From contig DXJL01000124.1 of the NCBI GenBank assembly GCA_019057635.1, forward strand, positions 1 to 19,103: DNA of 19,103 nt, written 5' to 3'. Below, piece by piece: positions 5,146 through 11,902 of this stretch. The notes below the pieces were generated by a model, which did not search any database, was not told the DNA's origin, and was given only the letters and a program-made list of their open reading frames with translations. Made by a program: the position numbers and the translations under genes. How positions within the stretch are numbered: the stretch's first letter is position 1; the number at the start of each line of letters is the position of its first letter. Source of the stretch: Candidatus Heimdallarchaeota archaeon (lineage in GTDB: Archaea; Asgardarchaeota; Heimdallarchaeia; Hodarchaeales; Hodarchaeaceae).

Positions 5146-5832
5146 TTGGAGGCTATCGCTATTCCAAACCCAAAGTCTACCAAAGAGCTTCATGATAAAT
5201 TCGCAGAAAAATTGAAAGAGATTTCTGATTCTGCTGATGATGAAGCTAAATCTTTACTCACAGAAGGATTAAGAAATACCGCCAAAATTCCTTTTTTCCC
5301 ACAGAATTTTTCTACCTACCTATTAGATCTAAAACTTGCTTTAAATTTACCGGTTTCTCTTTTACCAGATTCTCTTTTCGTAAGACCGAATTTTAAGGGG
5401 AAATCTGAATTCTTTCACCGATTAGCATCCGAACTTATTTCATTTGGATTAGCCTACCAACGGATAAACTTAAAACCAGTTCCTCTTCATAAAATCACTT
5501 CCTTATTTCATAAACATAGGCCATGGTGGCAGTGTGACATTCAAGACATTGAAACCGCTCTTGATGTTCTACAAATGAATAATATTATACGCAAAAAGGA
5601 GGAGGGGTATATTTTTGAGCCATTCTCAGTATCTAGTGAGATCAGAACTTTTCTGTCTGCTGTTTCTGATGGAATAAGCGATTATGGGGAAATATCCTTG
5701 ACATTGATTGAGCAATTAGTGCCTTGGGAGAACGCTAGGATCATCGCGACATTAGAAATCCTTACTAGTCATCAGATTTGTATATATGATCAGAAGAACG
5801 AATTAGTTTATTTCCCAGGTTTTAAGAAATGA
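5146..5832 (+). CDS. EAP30/Vps22(Snf8)-Vps36-like ESCRT-II subunit (tandem winged helix)
   Basis: Colinear matches to Vps22/EAP30 as recalled from memory: EFFHRLA~DFYYELG, VPLHKI~ITLEEL, DIETALDVL~DLIRAIKKL, YGEISL..I....WENAR...LEIL~NGYVTV..I...KWETER...LEHL, and terminal D....VYFPGF~D....YWLPAL. Length is similar. Confidence 0.75.
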   Translation: MEAIAIPNPKSTKELHDKFAEKLKEISDSADDEAKSLLTEGLRNTAKIPFFPQNFSTYLLDLKLALNLPVSLLPDSLFVRPNFKGKSEFFHRLASELISFGLAYQRINLKPVPLHKITSLFHKHRPWWQCDIQDIETALDVLQMNNIIRKKEEGYIFEPFSVSSEIRTFLSAVSDGISDYGEISLTLIEQLVPWENARIIATLEILTSHQICIYDQKNELVYFPGFKK

Positions 5833-5855
5833 AAGGATGAGGAGCCCGAGATTTC

Positions 5856-6152
5856 ATGTTATTTCCTCCCCCAGAAGCATCCAAGTTTTATGATGATCGA
5901 ATATTAATATCTTGGGAAATCTCTCAACCAAAAAATTGTGATTTACTTCGTGAACTTAAATTTGAGATATATGGAAAACCTAAACTAATTTTTGATCCTG
6001 ATCAAAGCCCTATTATTGAGTTACCAACGTTAGAAGGTAACACGGTTATCTTGAATTGGGTTATCAAGCAACCAGAAAAAAGTACAGATATTCACTTATC
6101 GATGGAGTCTTCAACGATTAAGGAAACCCAAAAAATTACCCTAACTCCCTGA
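5856..6152 (+). CDS. hypothetical protein, 98 aa, beta-strand rich (possibly Ig-like sandwich)
   Basis: Alternating hydrophobic strands (ILISWEI, LKFEI, VILNWVI, IHLSME, QKITL). It lies 23 nt after the ESCRT-II-like gene with GAGGAG upstream. Confidence 0.65.
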   Translation: MLFPPPEASKFYDDRILISWEISQPKNCDLLRELKFEIYGKPKLIFDPDQSPIIELPTLEGNTVILNWVIKQPEKSTDIHLSMESSTIKETQKITLTP

Positions 6153-7575: not shown

Positions 7576-9165
7576 TCAGTTCTTCCAGACTAATGCTTTC
7601 TTGTAATCACTTATTTCTTTTTCTATTTCTTCTGAGGACCATCCTAATAGGTTTCCCATATGGTGAGCGATCGCTTCAATGCAATCCAAACCTTGTTCAA
7701 ATGATAATTGAATCTGTGTTCGTCGAAATAACACATCTCGTAAAGTGATTGCTTTTTCATACTTAACAAAATAATTGATTTCACCGAAAATATAAGGACG
7801 ATGATTTGTAATAACTTTCATTAGCTGAGGATCTTCTTTTGCTTCATCTAGCATTTTGATATAATTATCTCCATATCTCAATAAGTGTTGAGAGACTTGC
7901 TCTGACAAATTATACCTGATCATCATATTCTCACATGCGATTCTTGACCAAGCGTCCCAACCCTGACGTTTAGTTGAAACCCAGCCATTCAATGGAACCT
8001 TGTCTGTAGTAGATTTTGTTTTATCCCCGAGAATTTTCGTAATTTTGTCCACCATTTCTTTTGCCATTGTTCGATAAGTGGTAAATTTTCCTCCCGCTAT
8101 AGCAAAAGTATTTGGTCTAACCATGCGAATCTCATGATTTCGTGAAACATCCGATTCTGATTTGGCAGAGTTAGAGAGAATTAAGGGGCGTAAACCTGAG
8201 TATGCACTGATGATATCTTGTTCTGTGAGAGAACCAGGAAACAAAAAGTTCACTGCGTCGATCAGGTAATTTACGTCTTCCTTTGTTACTGGAATATAAT
8301 CAAAATCTTCCACATAATCTGTGTCCGTTGTCCCAACTAACAAATTCTGCCCAAATGGAACAATAAATATTATCCTTCCATCTTCAACAGGGATAACAAC
8401 GGCATGATCTAGGTTATAGAACCGTTTTGTAATTAGATGAACTCCTTTTGTAGGTCGAACACGCGAATGCGATGAAGGGGCGATTCGTTGTACCATTTTA
8501 TCGCTCCAATGACCACAAGCTAAAACTAGTGTTTTTGTTTGGACTGTAAATACATGCTTGTTCGTTTGATCACGCATCGTTACCGTGTCTATTCCCTCTG
8601 GACTTTGTAAATGGAAATCTTCAGCCGAACAATAATTCAAAATGTCAGCTCCTGCTTTTTCTGCAGACAACATGACCTCAAGAGTCAATCGAGCATCATC
8701 CATTTGGCCATCACCATATATTGCTGCTCCTTGAAAATTCGTATCACGAATAGAGTTTGGTAGTAGCATCTTTGCTTTTTCAGGGCCTAGTATTCTGTGA
8801 AATGAGTAATTTCGAAAATTAGCAAAAAGATCATAGAGCCAGACTGCTAATCTCATTTTTTTCTTTGTCAGAATAGTATCAGAATGAAGAGGAACAAGAA
8901 ATTTCAAAGGCCGTGTTATATGTGGTGCCATTTCAAGGATTTTTTTTCTTTCAATTGATGCTTCACGAACGAGACGAAACTCTTTTTGGCCAATATAGCG
9001 TATTCCTGCGTGTACAAGTTTGGATGAACCACTACTTGTTCCATAACCAAAATCATCTTTCTCAACTAATGCAACTGTAAGACCTCTTAGAGCAGCATCC
9101 CGAGCGATACCTGCACCTGTTATACCTCCTCCTATAATAAGGATATCATAGTTAGTTTTACTCAT
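7576..9165 (-). CDS. glpD: FAD-dependent glycerol-3-phosphate dehydrogenase/oxidase (GlpD/GlpA family)
   Basis: DILIIGGGITGAGIARDAALRGL, GTSSGSSKLVHAGIRY, DDARL, TKGVHL, GTTD, YSGLRPL, SRNH, GGKFTTYR and DVLFRRT. Start moved to ATG 9165 to avoid overlap with TatD. Confidence 0.93.
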   Translation of the reverse strand: MSKTNYDILIIGGGITGAGIARDAALRGLTVALVEKDDFGYGTSSGSSKLVHAGIRYIGQKEFRLVREASIERKKILEMAPHITRPLKFLVPLHSDTILTKKKMRLAVWLYDLFANFRNYSFHRILGPEKAKMLLPNSIRDTNFQGAAIYGDGQMDDARLTLEVMLSAEKAGADILNYCSAEDFHLQSPEGIDTVTMRDQTNKHVFTVQTKTLVLACGHWSDKMVQRIAPSSHSRVRPTKGVHLITKRFYNLDHAVVIPVEDGRIIFIVPFGQNLLVGTTDTDYVEDFDYIPVTKEDVNYLIDAVNFLFPGSLTEQDIISAYSGLRPLILSNSAKSESDVSRNHEIRMVRPNTFAIAGGKFTTYRTMAKEMVDKITKILGDKTKSTTDKVPLNGWVSTKRQGWDAWSRIACENMMIRYNLSEQVSQHLLRYGDNYIKMLDEAKEDPQLMKVITNHRPYIFGEINYFVKYEKAITLRDVLFRRTQIQLSFEQGLDCIEAIAHHMGNLLGWSSEEIEKEISDYKKALVWKN

Positions 9166-9229
9166 TTTTTGGATAGTGGGTTCCCGGTATTTATGATTTT
9201 TCACAGTTCTTGCCTCGATCTCTGAATTG

Positions 9230-9973
9230 TTATATATTGAAGAATTTTTCCGTATTTCGGGTTGTAATCTCATCTACTTCTTCGATAGATGAATTCTTTA
9301 GTCTGGCTAACTCTTCAATGGCATATTTAATGTTTGCTGGTTCATTACGCTTTTTTGGTATGGGACTAAGAAAGGGGGAATCAGTTTCTACTACAACATG
9401 CTCTAAAGGTGTCTTTCGTGCTATCTTGCGATGTTTCTTTCGATTAACTACTGCTGTTGGTATTGATATCTTCCATCCTAAATCAATTACTCTGGTTGTT
9501 TCACTGATGTTCCCTGCAAAACAATGCATTAGAATAGGTACATTGGCGAAACGTTCCAAAATATCAATGCAATCTGATTCCGCTTTCCGAGAGTGTATGA
9601 CTAATGGTTTCTCAAGAGTATTCGCAAGCTCTATAAATTGTTTAAAGATATCTTGTTGCTTACTTCGCCATTGGGATTCATGTATCCAGTGATAATCCAG
9701 CCCAACTTCCCCAATCGCAACTATAGAGGTGTTTTGACTTATTAATTCAATTGTCTCGTCAAATGGTATCTCTTTAATCCTCTGTGGGGCAAACCCCAGT
9801 GTGGTAAAAATAAACCCTGGATGAGTTTCTGCGAGCTGAATAGCAAAAGTAAATTGATGGGGTTCAATTGCACTATTTATTACAGCCTGAAGACCCGTTT
9901 TTTTCGCATTATCTATTACCGTATCAATATTTTTCATGAAGTCTGGTAATAAATGTGCATGTGCATCGATCAT
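9230..9973 (-). CDS. tatD: TatD family metal-dependent hydrolase/DNase
   Basis: DAHAH, IGEVGLDY, HSRKAE, HCF, ETDSPFL and RNEPAN motifs. Confidence 0.95.
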   Translation of the reverse strand: MIDAHAHLLPDFMKNIDTVIDNAKKTGLQAVINSAIEPHQFTFAIQLAETHPGFIFTTLGFAPQRIKEIPFDETIELISQNTSIVAIGEVGLDYHWIHESQWRSKQQDIFKQFIELANTLEKPLVIHSRKAESDCIDILERFANVPILMHCFAGNISETTRVIDLGWKISIPTAVVNRKKHRKIARKTPLEHVVVETDSPFLSPIPKKRNEPANIKYAIEELARLKNSSIEEVDEITTRNTEKFFNI

Positions 9974-10287: not shown

Positions 10288-11286
10288 ATGGAAGAATCAG
10301 AGTTAAGAGAACTTATTCGTGAATATGCAATGCAAGTACGTCTTGATCAAGGTGAAGCATCATTAACCTCGGTTCTCAAGCATGTGATAGCAGAAAACCC
10401 GGGAATGAAAACTCAAGTAAGGTCTTCGGTTGCGCTAATAAAAGAATTAATCGGAGAGGTAAATTCGATGGAAGAAAACGATCTGAGTGAGAGCTCAAGC
10501 GGAATTTCTGTGGATGAGTCAAGCGAATATGAAATGTTGGTCAAATTAGTCAGTCAAAAGTTGTTAGATTCTCCTGAATTGAAAAAAGACATCAAGAGCC
10601 TGATGATTTATGGATCCTACGCAAAGAAATTGCACGTTGTCGGAGACAGTGATATCAACTTTTTAATCGTCCTTACAGCTAATAAAAAATCGGAGGACGC
10701 AATTGAAGCAATAACTAGCATCGCGGAAGAAATTGTTACACCTGAAATCGCTCACATCTTTGATCTTATGATTTTAAAAGAAGATGATATCTCAGATTTG
10801 GAAAAATTTGAACATGTATTTACCTACATTCATGCTCTTTATGCAAAAGAAGGGGAACTCATCTACGGTGAAAATCTATTCAAAGATCTTAAATTTACTA
10901 ACAAAAATATTCAAGATGCTGCGAAATTATTAATTGAAGATTCTATATCCCAATTCTTCGAGATAGAAAAAACTGCAAAGGAAGAAGGCTTACCTGAAGA
11001 TGAACTTGATTATTTACTTGGCTCATCAATTATTGATATTGCTTTTGGTCTTTCTTGTTACAAAGCAGGGGTAAAATCTGTCAAAATGGATCTTGTGAAA
11101 CCTGATATTCATGAAGAAATTATTGAAGTTTGGGGAACCGATTCTGAATTTTCCAGCTTCTATCCACTCTTTGAAAAAGCGCATGCATTCAAACTTAGTA
11201 TTAAGCTCCCTGAATCTGATAACTTTAGGGAAGATTGCGAAAATTTTATACAAAAAGTTATTGAATATACAGGGTTATCAGGATAA
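10288..11286 (+). CDS. multidomain protein: archaeal GluRS N-terminal-like helical domain + acidic linker + Pol-beta-type nucleotidyltransferase + C-terminal helical (HEPN/substrate-binding-like) domain
   Basis: NTase motif IYGSYAK.....DSDINFLIV with a later FDLMIL strand. Residues ~1-62 (LRELIREYA...A....V...VIAENP.MK.......IKELIGEVNSM) match the pattern of the archaeal GluRS N-terminal extension. Confidence 0.75.
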   Translation: MEESELRELIREYAMQVRLDQGEASLTSVLKHVIAENPGMKTQVRSSVALIKELIGEVNSMEENDLSESSSGISVDESSEYEMLVKLVSQKLLDSPELKKDIKSLMIYGSYAKKLHVVGDSDINFLIVLTANKKSEDAIEAITSIAEEIVTPEIAHIFDLMILKEDDISDLEKFEHVFTYIHALYAKEGELIYGENLFKDLKFTNKNIQDAAKLLIEDSISQFFEIEKTAKEEGLPEDELDYLLGSSIIDIAFGLSCYKAGVKSVKMDLVKPDIHEEIIEVWGTDSEFSSFYPLFEKAHAFKLSIKLPESDNFREDCENFIQKVIEYTGLSG

Positions 11287-11296
11287 TAAAACTAAA

Positions 11297-11902
11297 TTAT
11301 TTTCTTTCATCTCTAAGATAACCTTCTCTCTCCAAATATGATTTGAGGAATAAAAAATCTGTTTGATAGCCTTCGAGCTCATTTAGCGCGTAGGAATGAA
11401 ATGAATCTGCCTGTTCTCGGGTAATCCATTGTTTTTTCGAGTATACTGATGCCTGATTCATAACATCTATATGATCAGCAATTCTAGCAATCCTAAATTC
11501 TTCCGTATCATTGTCTCCCATTAGGTCTAGAAATAAAACTCCTATTTCTTGACTTAACTGGTTGGTAATACGTGTTACTGCCCCTTCCTCAATATTTTGA
11601 AGAAAGGCTGAAATTTTTTGAGGATCGGCTAAATTAAAAATACTTTTATCAATATCCATATACTCAGATTCAGGAAAATCATGAAAAAGTGCATGTAACA
11701 CGGCTTTTTCTGTGTTAAGAAGAGGTTTATTTACTTGAGTTTTTCTTAAGATATTTTCCTCTGCACAAAAGAAGTATGTAAGAATACTAACAGCCCAAGA
11801 ATGATCTGCTAAAGATTCAATATCACATTTTGGAACTCCAGCTCGGATCCAACCAGTACGCAGCAAAGATTTCATTAATCCAATGTTCTTCATCAAAATC
11901 AA
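11297..11902 (-). CDS. HD-domain hydrolase, YfbR/HDDC2-like 5'-deoxynucleotidase family
   Basis: RTGWIRAGV..ESLADHS, ALFHDFPE...DI, EE and ADHID motifs. Confidence 0.9.
   Translation of the reverse strand: MILMKNIGLMKSLLRTGWIRAGVPKCDIESLADHSWAVSILTYFFCAEENILRKTQVNKPLLNTEKAVLHALFHDFPESEYMDIDKSIFNLADPQKISAFLQNIEEGAVTRITNQLSQEIGVLFLDLMGDNDTEEFRIARIADHIDVMNQASVYSKKQWITREQADSFHSYALNELEGYQTDFLFLKSYLEREGYLRDERK

Follow-up and report, generated by a model that had tools for sequence, protein, structure and literature searches.

A YqeY-type synthetase domain joined to a nucleotidyltransferase with an altered active site in an order of Asgard archaea

What might a protein do that joins a domain of glutamyl-tRNA synthetase (GluRS) type to a nucleotidyltransferase (NTase) whose active site has been altered? 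The question is raised by an open reading frame (ORF) at 10288..11286 on the forward strand of a 19,103-nt stretch of DNA from Candidatus Heimdallarchaeota archaeon (contig DXJL01000124.1; "the window" below is this whole stretch), which encodes 332 amino acids plus a stop codon. The reading we favor, with a probability of roughly 45%, is that the product (P0001) is a nucleotide-binding, catalytically impaired NTase paralog that would be tethered by a remodeled YqeY-type synthetase domain. This is a new architecture assembled from known parts. No published description of it was found in the literature, partly judged by title, and the earlier note on this DNA had likewise called it undescribed.

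The fused gene is a real, conserved gene under strong purifying selection and not a chance ORF. A first homolog search returned 79 proteins, mostly full-length and 52–81% identical, whose named sources are mostly Hodarchaeales, Hodarchaeota or Heimdallarchaeota; the median ratio of nonsynonymous to synonymous substitution (dN/dS) over the whole coding sequence is 0.06. At E 0.001, 30 relatives were recovered among 1.84 billion representative proteins, their named sources again being Hodarchaeales or Heimdallarchaeota. These relatives form three tiers: a close family; distant full-length proteins of ~30–33% identity that carry the N-terminal domain (N-domain); and proteins of 235–264 amino acids without it ("N-less"), which match residues ~77–327 only.

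The protein has three modules, as the earlier note proposed. The N-domain (residues 1–62, 10288..10473) is modeled as a four-helix bundle. It is followed by an acidic, Ser-rich, disordered linker (residues 63–79, 10474..10524; EENDLSESSSGISVDESSE is the string at residues 62–80), a Pol-beta/MNT-type NTase core (residues 80–200, 10525..10887), and a helical C-terminal domain (C-domain; residues 201–332, 10888..11283), all on the forward strand. The ORF position and every string quoted from it earlier are present exactly as given. The whole-protein model, built from a 30-sequence alignment, has a predicted local distance difference test score (pLDDT) of 80.4 and places four helices at 3–59, a disordered linker at 60–78, an alpha/beta core at ~77–195 and a helical C-domain at 205–328; modeled alone, the N-domain reaches 89.9. 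The linker has pLDDT <50 at residues 69–78 and the lowest conservation of any segment. Over 10 close pairs the N-domain has a median dN/dS of 0.062, the NTase core 0.053 and the C-domain 0.065, compared with 0.14 in the linker; these ratios are approximate with dS near saturation. The corresponding mean identities across 21 genomes are 69.5%, 70.3%, 65.0% and 42.8%, the N-domain being about as conserved as the core. An alignment of 30 of the 79 proteins (A1) contains the invariant blocks YGSYAK.LH.VG.SDINF, TPE..HIFDLM.L, DLVKPDI and AHA.KL, of which the last two lie in the C-domain at 268–274 (with H275 nearly invariant) and 298–303.

By profile comparison, the N-domain is a homolog of the YQEY-type N-terminal extension of archaeal GluRS. 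Residues 4–66 match positions 3–66 of the archaeal GluRS model NF003169 (E 5.6e-7), and the same segment matches TIGR00463 (E 0.0033). When 23 N-domains were run singly, one per species genome, NF003169 was matched by 21 (E 0.01 or better; best 4.6e-8) and TIGR00463 by 14; the sole other NCBIfam family matched was SAMP1, once. Among Pfam families GatB_Yqey (PF02637) was the most frequent match for these domains and a weak one (5/23 at E up to 0.1), and for the window's own protein it scored E 0.0075 and 16.6–16.8 bits, below the gathering threshold of 27. A hidden Markov model (HMM) of GluRS N-extensions, built from 29 sequences (28 other Asgard GluRS and the genome's own), was searched against 14,941 ORF pieces of the genome and returned GluRS at 4.8e-25, the fused gene at 6.9e-6 and the next ORF at 0.49. 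The reverse search, with an N-domain HMM, matched 21 of the 29 GluRS at E <0.01 (best 9.7e-10), ahead of all unrelated ORFs. The homology is clear only with profiles of diverse GluRS, and then in both directions; BLASTP of the N-domain against the genome's own GluRS N-extension gave no alignment. The class I catalytic core is absent from the fused protein, which has no PF00749 hit, and the NF003169 match ends at model position 73–75. A large search for longer proteins carrying the N-domain, word-limited and weak as evidence, found only the fused NTase family and one GluRS. The GluRS-like character first proposed for this segment is thus sustained by the NF003169 matches and the reciprocal searches, and the sequence pattern then given for the extension is seen in real GluRS sequences. 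The YqeY-type label also agrees with usage in print, where the N-terminal extension of archaeal GluRS, residues 1–85 in Methanothermobacter thermautotrophicus, is termed the YQEY domain (PMC2978374).

Which synthetase gave rise to the domain is a separate matter, and neither GluRS nor glutaminyl-tRNA synthetase (GlnRS) is favored as the single donor. Against the N-domain profile, GlnRS N-extensions from sister families reach 17–41 bits and GluRS ones 26–42 bits, ranges that overlap. The 70-column domain tree is indecisive: the NTase N-domains are not placed inside the present-day Hodarchaeales GluRS clade, in a tree that left out six of ten additionally fetched GluRS loci, missed by a motif filter. 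An observation in its own right is a divergent GluRS-like gene of the same-order sister family (G078:C605, locus L124; a 619-aa frame), whose N-extension is the top scorer with the NTase N-domain profile (42–43 bits) and which, on that score, may be the donor's nearest surviving relative.

The body of the protein (~78–332) is a two-domain NTase of the ANT/KNTase type, comprising a Pol-beta core and a helical domain. The Pfam models Polbeta and NTP_transf_2 align to residues 98–167, scoring below threshold when the whole protein is searched (23.5 vs. 26.9 and 19.6 vs. 21) and, for the isolated segment, at 26.1 vs. 26.9 and 21.3 vs. 21. Foldseek aligns residues ~77–332 with the whole of ANT(9), ANT(3'')(9)/AadA and KNTase (E 1.8e-4 to 5e-3; TM-score by target 0.42–0.61; 282–294 columns). 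Together with an alignment on the solved minimal NTase 9xbd_E, these matches uphold the assignment of the core as Pol-beta/MNT-type. In an atlas comparison the whole protein resembles NTP_transf_2 clusters of 255–275 aa at 0.96, and two leads emerge for the C-domain, AadA_C at 0.86 and KNTase_C at 0.84, neither reaching the 0.9 trust level. The C-domain has no Pfam hit, with AadA_C and KNTase_C giving none at E up to 10. It had previously been expected to be a HEPN or NTase_sub_bind partner, an expectation that these structural matches and leads replace with an ANT/KNTase-type helical domain. The accompanying remark that no HEPN motif is visible was correct, as a scan of the whole 332-aa sequence finds no R-x(4-6)-H anywhere. 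Three functional family models score far under their cut-offs: NF012212 for ANT(9) scores 23.6 bits vs. 340, NF047752 for MntA 17.3 vs. 60 (E 0.0032), and TIGR03671 for the archaeal class I CCA-adding enzyme 14 vs. 281.3, over residues 77–150 only.

The active site of this body is altered in a consistent way. The recognizable motifs are YGSYAK at residues 108–113, DSDIN at 120–124 and FD at 158–159. Within them, the NTP-binding "hGS" motif G109-S110 (10612..10617) is invariant and present in 77/77 sequences (P0001–P0077); this motif, the basic residues after it and D122 are fixed in the main clade, as seen in A1. The third carboxylate, D159 (10762..10764, in HIFDLMIL), is invariant in A1. The hG[GS] motif and the third carboxylate that characterize the Pol-beta/MNT superfamily are therefore both present, and in place of its [DE]-h-[DE] metal-binding pair stands D122-I123-N124 (10651..10659). 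The family profile aligns GESDINF on TDSDIDF of 9xbd_E (E 3.7e-4), so that Asn124 stands where the second metal-binding Asp would be. SDINF is found in all 77 sequences, and fused genes taken one per species genome (n = 23) comprise 22 with D-x-N and one with N-x-N, giving Asn at the second position in every case. N-less genes from genomes (n = 48) comprise 47 with D-x-D and one with D-x-N (L100), and N-less representative proteins (n = 9) seven with D-x-D and two with D-x-N (P0097, P0103). Deeper fused lineages show additional losses: the motif is N-x-N in P0089 and P0090, Asn replaces the third carboxylate in P0086 and P0091, and P0086 (D-x-N plus N) and P0089 (N-x-N plus D) are each left with one carboxylate. 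The replacements in fused members are always the isosteric change from Asp to Asn.

In NTases of the Pol-beta fold both Asp residues of D-x-D ligate the two catalytic metals. With Asn fixed at one of these positions, we infer that two-metal nucleotidyl transfer has been lost or greatly weakened and that the pocket has been kept. That the second acidic residue is Asn had been noticed at the outset, and the possibility then mentioned of a catalytically altered scaffold is the one that best fits the data. The stretch between the GS motif and D122, YAK[KR]LHVVG[ED] (residues 111–120; window 10618–10647), is almost invariant and yet modeled with pLDDT <50; from the model, it may be a mobile lid over substrate or nucleotide.

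The distribution of the fusion and its phylogeny indicate how this site arose. In a survey of 400 Asgard genomes, full-length fused matches occur in 21/22 genomes of the window's family (its own included) and in 2/2 of a same-order sister family, for a total of 23/400, all in two families of one order and with one fused match per genome. The sole genome of the window's family without a fused match is 71% complete, and the order as a whole has the gene in 23 of the 24 genomes searched. The fusion is a feature of that one order, Hodarchaeales by the names of the homolog sources; the earlier proposal to look for it in Asgard genomes was right as far as it went, but "Asgard" is too broad. Beyond the two families only the body is matched; such hits come from five more families of the class, and from three genomes belonging to another two families. 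An N-less paralog accompanies the fused gene in 19/21 fused-bearing genomes of the window's family, including this one (C183:43579-44376, with the motif SDLDL, unlinked to the fused gene). Four fused-bearing genomes (G059, G068, G078 and G079; 74–87% complete) have no N-less match to this query. In a quick tree of 85 bodies all 28 fused rows lie behind one branch (SH-aLRT 99), and their nearest N-less relatives are P0094, with D-x-D, and the clade of same-genome paralogs. On this tree, acquisition of the synthetase domain and replacement of Asp by Asn fall on the same single branch, after the duplication. The body descends from an N-less D-x-D NTase widespread in the class, and the N-less Heimdallarchaeia NTases are its direct evolutionary source. 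Members of that group (for example P0094, P0098 and this genome's paralog) share 25–34% identity with the fused protein over ~78–327, as well as EY..L, GS, h-D-h and AH..[RK]LG; unlike the fused genes, they lack the N-domain and have D-x-D in 47/48 cases.

Whether the N-domain still binds tRNA bears directly on function. In GatB, the YqeY-type tail is reported to have a conserved hydrophobic pocket (V449, M452, G457, A459, P461) ringed by positive residues and proposed to dock the tRNA D-loop (PMC2811023), and the Yqey domain of Deinococcus radiodurans GlnRS is reported to raise affinity for tRNA-Gln in cis only (PMC1865053). Over 65 shared columns the NTase N-domains keep the G-x-A core (G22, A24), but read GEA in place of GKA and are without the first Lys of KAVMGK. 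Their mean net charge is −5.1 (n = 23), compared with +1.0 in the GluRS N-extensions (n = 29). Several conserved basic residues are left in A1 (R7, R18, K31, K41, R45 and K52), and the isoelectric point of the whole protein, 4.53, is below that of 96% of the 1813 genome ORFs of 200 aa or more. The lysine loss and the acidic charge appear to weigh against simple tRNA binding, and the remodeled charge suggests that the target, whatever its nature, would not be bound in the way that GluRS or GatB bind tRNA. The window itself has no tRNA genes and gives no Rfam hits.

Our favored reading combines these lines of evidence. A nucleotide would still be bound by the fused protein, because strong purifying selection keeps the GS-YAK[KR] loop, D122, D159 and K271 of the C-domain invariant or almost invariant, but two-metal transfer of a nucleotide would be lost or greatly weakened. 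The protein would then serve mainly as a nucleotide-binding adaptor or sensor, and its flexibly tethered synthetase-derived domain may dock it in cis to a target related to tRNA(Glu/Gln).

Several observations weigh against this reading. Asn is able to ligate Mg2+ through its carbonyl oxygen. Asn124 is strictly invariant and the acidic residue at 120 nearly so (E120 in most, D120 here); an inactive site should drift, so this conservation would also fit a modified but still working site. Because the main clade has lost just one of its three carboxylates, inactivity is itself something we infer. Fusion and replacement are one evolutionary event, so their co-occurrence is uninformative on cause and is not a statistical association, and the body tree comes from a quick maximum-likelihood run, rooted at the midpoint, and not from a completed thorough search. 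On the side of the N-domain, four of some seven conserved basic positions of the GluRS extension are retained, as read by eye from consensus lines, which makes tRNA binding by this domain possible. The tRNA role of the GluRS extension is moreover an extrapolation by analogy, from GatB and D. radiodurans GlnRS as reported (PMC2811023, PMC1865053). The N-domain HMM places the genome's own GluRS only fourth (E 0.66). Structure comparison also fails to discriminate: Foldseek returned nothing for the isolated N-domain down to E 0.001, and in a VIA-wide search the best Z (6.4) went to unrelated small helical proteins. In that search Campylobacter jejuni YqeY (8xje_A, residues 94–146; Z 4.8, rmsd 1.8 Å over 46 residues) shared its rank with many unrelated folds, and the N-domain of human GlnRS (117–182; Z 4.5) likewise ranked level with many others. 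The GluRS extension is reported as disordered in the sole archaeal GluRS structure (PMC2978374), so fold searches could not have returned it.

Retained activity is the issue on which two unlikely, though still serious, alternatives turn. The first is the tRNA-directed NTase, in which the YqeY-type domain would recruit tRNA(Glu/Gln) in cis and the core would add a nucleotide to it, using D122, N124, D159 and perhaps the acidic residue at 120. The N-domain does belong with a family for which a cis role in tRNA affinity is documented in D. radiodurans GlnRS, where a long flexible linker is also described (PMC1865053), and the invariance of the GS motif, D122 and D159, the absence of drift at Asn124 and the core's dN/dS of 0.053 are what an active enzyme would show. 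But every member has Asn as its second metal ligand, deeper lineages are down to one carboxylate (P0086, P0089), and the GKA lysine is charge-reversed in an N-domain of net charge −5, within a protein among the most acidic 4% in its genome. Nor do the closest folds help this alternative, being small-molecule NTases and not CCA-adding or MenT-type enzymes, and the window's lack of tRNA genes and Rfam hits does not help it either.

The second, which we hold to be similarly doubtful, is a still-active ANT-like NTase acting on a small molecule or a protein, with the borrowed domain serving as a protein-docking or regulatory module (for GluRS, GlnRS or GatDE, for example) and not as a tRNA binder. 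ANT(9), AadA and KNTase are closest to the body over both of its domains. ANT-type enzymes are likewise acidic and act on cationic small molecules, and an N-domain whose surface has turned negative as its core residues G22, A24, L26, V29 and P38 stayed invariant or nearly so would suit protein docking. The D-x-N site speaks against retained activity here as well; the ANT(9) model is far short of its cut-off, and the neighboring genes (TatD, an HD hydrolase and eS25) give no clue to a substrate.

It is rather improbable that the fused protein is the non-catalytic partner of the N-less D-x-D paralog, in a KNTase-like heterodimer where the fused copy targets and the paralog catalyzes. KNTase forms dimers that share active sites, the paralog is present in 19 of the 21 family genomes mentioned above, SDLDL being its motif in this one, and the two clades are close neighbors on the tree. 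However, ANT(9) and AadA are monomers, four fused-bearing genomes lack an N-less match to this query, and the fused gene and the paralog are unlinked. We consider equally improbable a nucleotide-gated sensor of the Glu/Gln-tRNA system, peculiar to this order, in which the YqeY domain would have been redeployed on a silenced NTase to couple the status of tRNA or synthetase to nucleotide binding. GCN2, which uses a dead HisRS-like domain, provides a comparison, and the YqeY domain is still carried by the GlnRS of sister families and missing from the GlnRS of this genome. An MNT-type antitoxin or defense-system NTase on a mobile island can be set aside as most improbable. Its support is confined to weak matches to the generic core (MntA E 0.0032, PDC-S09 8.4e-7, Cyclase 4.5e-5) and lower Foldseek ranks for HalB, CdnD and MNT. 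Against it, the gene adjoins TatD and an HD hydrolase and no HEPN or other partner gene, its locus keeps the same place among housekeeping genes in 20/20 genomes, 23/24 genomes of the order have one fused match each, PHROGs gives no hits and all scores fall far under family cut-offs.

Comparison with known systems places the fused protein between several precedents. Like ANT(9), AadA and KNTase it has a two-domain build (282–294 columns), a GS motif and a third carboxylate; unlike them it has ~10–16% identity, Asn as second ligand, an extra N-terminal domain and an archaeal host, and nothing points to an antibiotic substrate. Its N-domain is homologous to and collinear with the YQEY extension of M. 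thermautotrophicus GluRS, as reported, over ~62 residues, and is similarly N-terminal with a flexible joint (PMC2978374), but is joined to an NTase and not to a class I core, with GKA charge-reversed and a net charge of −5 vs. +1. It also recalls D. radiodurans GlnRS, with its reported C-terminal Yqey (NF011291), and the tails of GatB and GatE, in being a small helical YqeY-type module tethered to an enzyme by a linker. It departs from these in its sub-threshold GatB_Yqey match, in a partner from outside the aminoacylation machinery, and in the apparent loss of most of the pocket's basic surround. MiD51 and the inactive N-terminal NTase module of TUT4/7 keep the NTase fold as a ligand- or partner-binding module after carboxylate loss; the likeness is without a shown sequence relationship, and in the main fused clade one of three carboxylates is lost.

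Re-use of synthetase domains outside translation is rare and is informative on how the translation apparatus is monitored. The single origin of the fusion provides a before-and-after pair within one genome, the N-less D-x-D paralog and the fused D-x-N copy, in a lineage that is reported as the archaeal lineage closest to eukaryotes and that also has a direct GlnRS pathway. If tRNA or a synthetase is bound, the protein would represent a new class of tRNA-linked regulator; if neither is bound, it would still be a well-defined natural experiment in the remodeling of an NTase active site.

The GlnRS of this genome (G000 contig C166, L002:1378-3147) is genuine (TIGR00440, 692 bits vs. 426) and has no YqeY N-extension. 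A 2022 review describes GlnRS as lacking in all known archaea (PMC9499178), and a 2024 preprint names GlnRS in Hodarchaeales in passing (10.1101/2024.07.04.601786). GlnRS orthologs of two sister Heimdallarchaeia families, 52–61% identical to this one, carry a GluRS-type YqeY N-extension (L107:4401-6353, L108:4373-6313, L109:16755-18713, L110:2052-3974, L125–L127, L129–L131), with the HIGH motif at about residue 128–139 of the open frame. Eukaryotic GlnRS also has a YqeY-like N-domain, and the sister-family extension may bear on the origin of GlnRS; no print account of it was found in the literature searches made. Coexisting with GlnRS in the window's genome is a GatE-like protein (G000 contig C183, L113:475-2373; TIGR00134, 334 bits vs. 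320), whose last ~70 residues lie outside the GatE models and in which Pfam GatB_Yqey detects no tail.

The N-less NTases have a setting of their own in one Heimdallarchaeia family, where in 4/4 mid-locus cases (L107:7770-9169, L108:7735-9130, L111:6094-7506, L112:6044-7516) the gene is followed, after a gap of ~20 nt, by a KaiC-like ATPase of ~219 aa. An M24 peptidase comes next in three of these four loci, and all four have a divergent P-type ATPase on the upstream side. A functional link between GlnRS and the N-less NTase, ~2 kb apart in G015 and G016, was considered and dropped; the distance is 13 kb in G011, and the loci L111 and L112 have no GlnRS.

The fused gene itself sits among housekeeping genes, in a window whose content is archaeal and Asgard-like: two thermosome subunits, RpoK, an EAP30/Vps36-like protein, eS25, and proteasome alpha and beta. 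A convergent HD-domain (YfbR-like) gene (11297..11902, reverse strand; Pfam HD_3 7.5e-15) follows it in 20/20 family loci, here with 10 bp between the stop codons, eS25 is next in 19/20, and TatD lies upstream in 8/20, counts that are lower bounds, the flanks being short. PHROGs returned no hits for the locus, and PADLOC returned matches to the generic NTase core only, PDC-S09 (8.4e-7) over residues 99–151 and Cyclase (4.5e-5); a match of TatD to QatD was dismissed as a housekeeping cross-match. One 152-nt contig from one metatranscriptome run matches 10485–10635 exactly, which is the only hint of expression and too little to claim it. Elsewhere in the window, the EAP30/Vps36-like (ESCRT-II-type) gene and a following 98-aa ORF without a Pfam hit, at 5146–6152, are typical Asgard content. 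On the reverse strand (7576–9973) a GlpD-like FAD oxidoreductase ORF (7576–9273) overlaps the TatD ORF (9230–9973) by 44 nt as listed, and the true start of the GlpD-like gene may lie further downstream.

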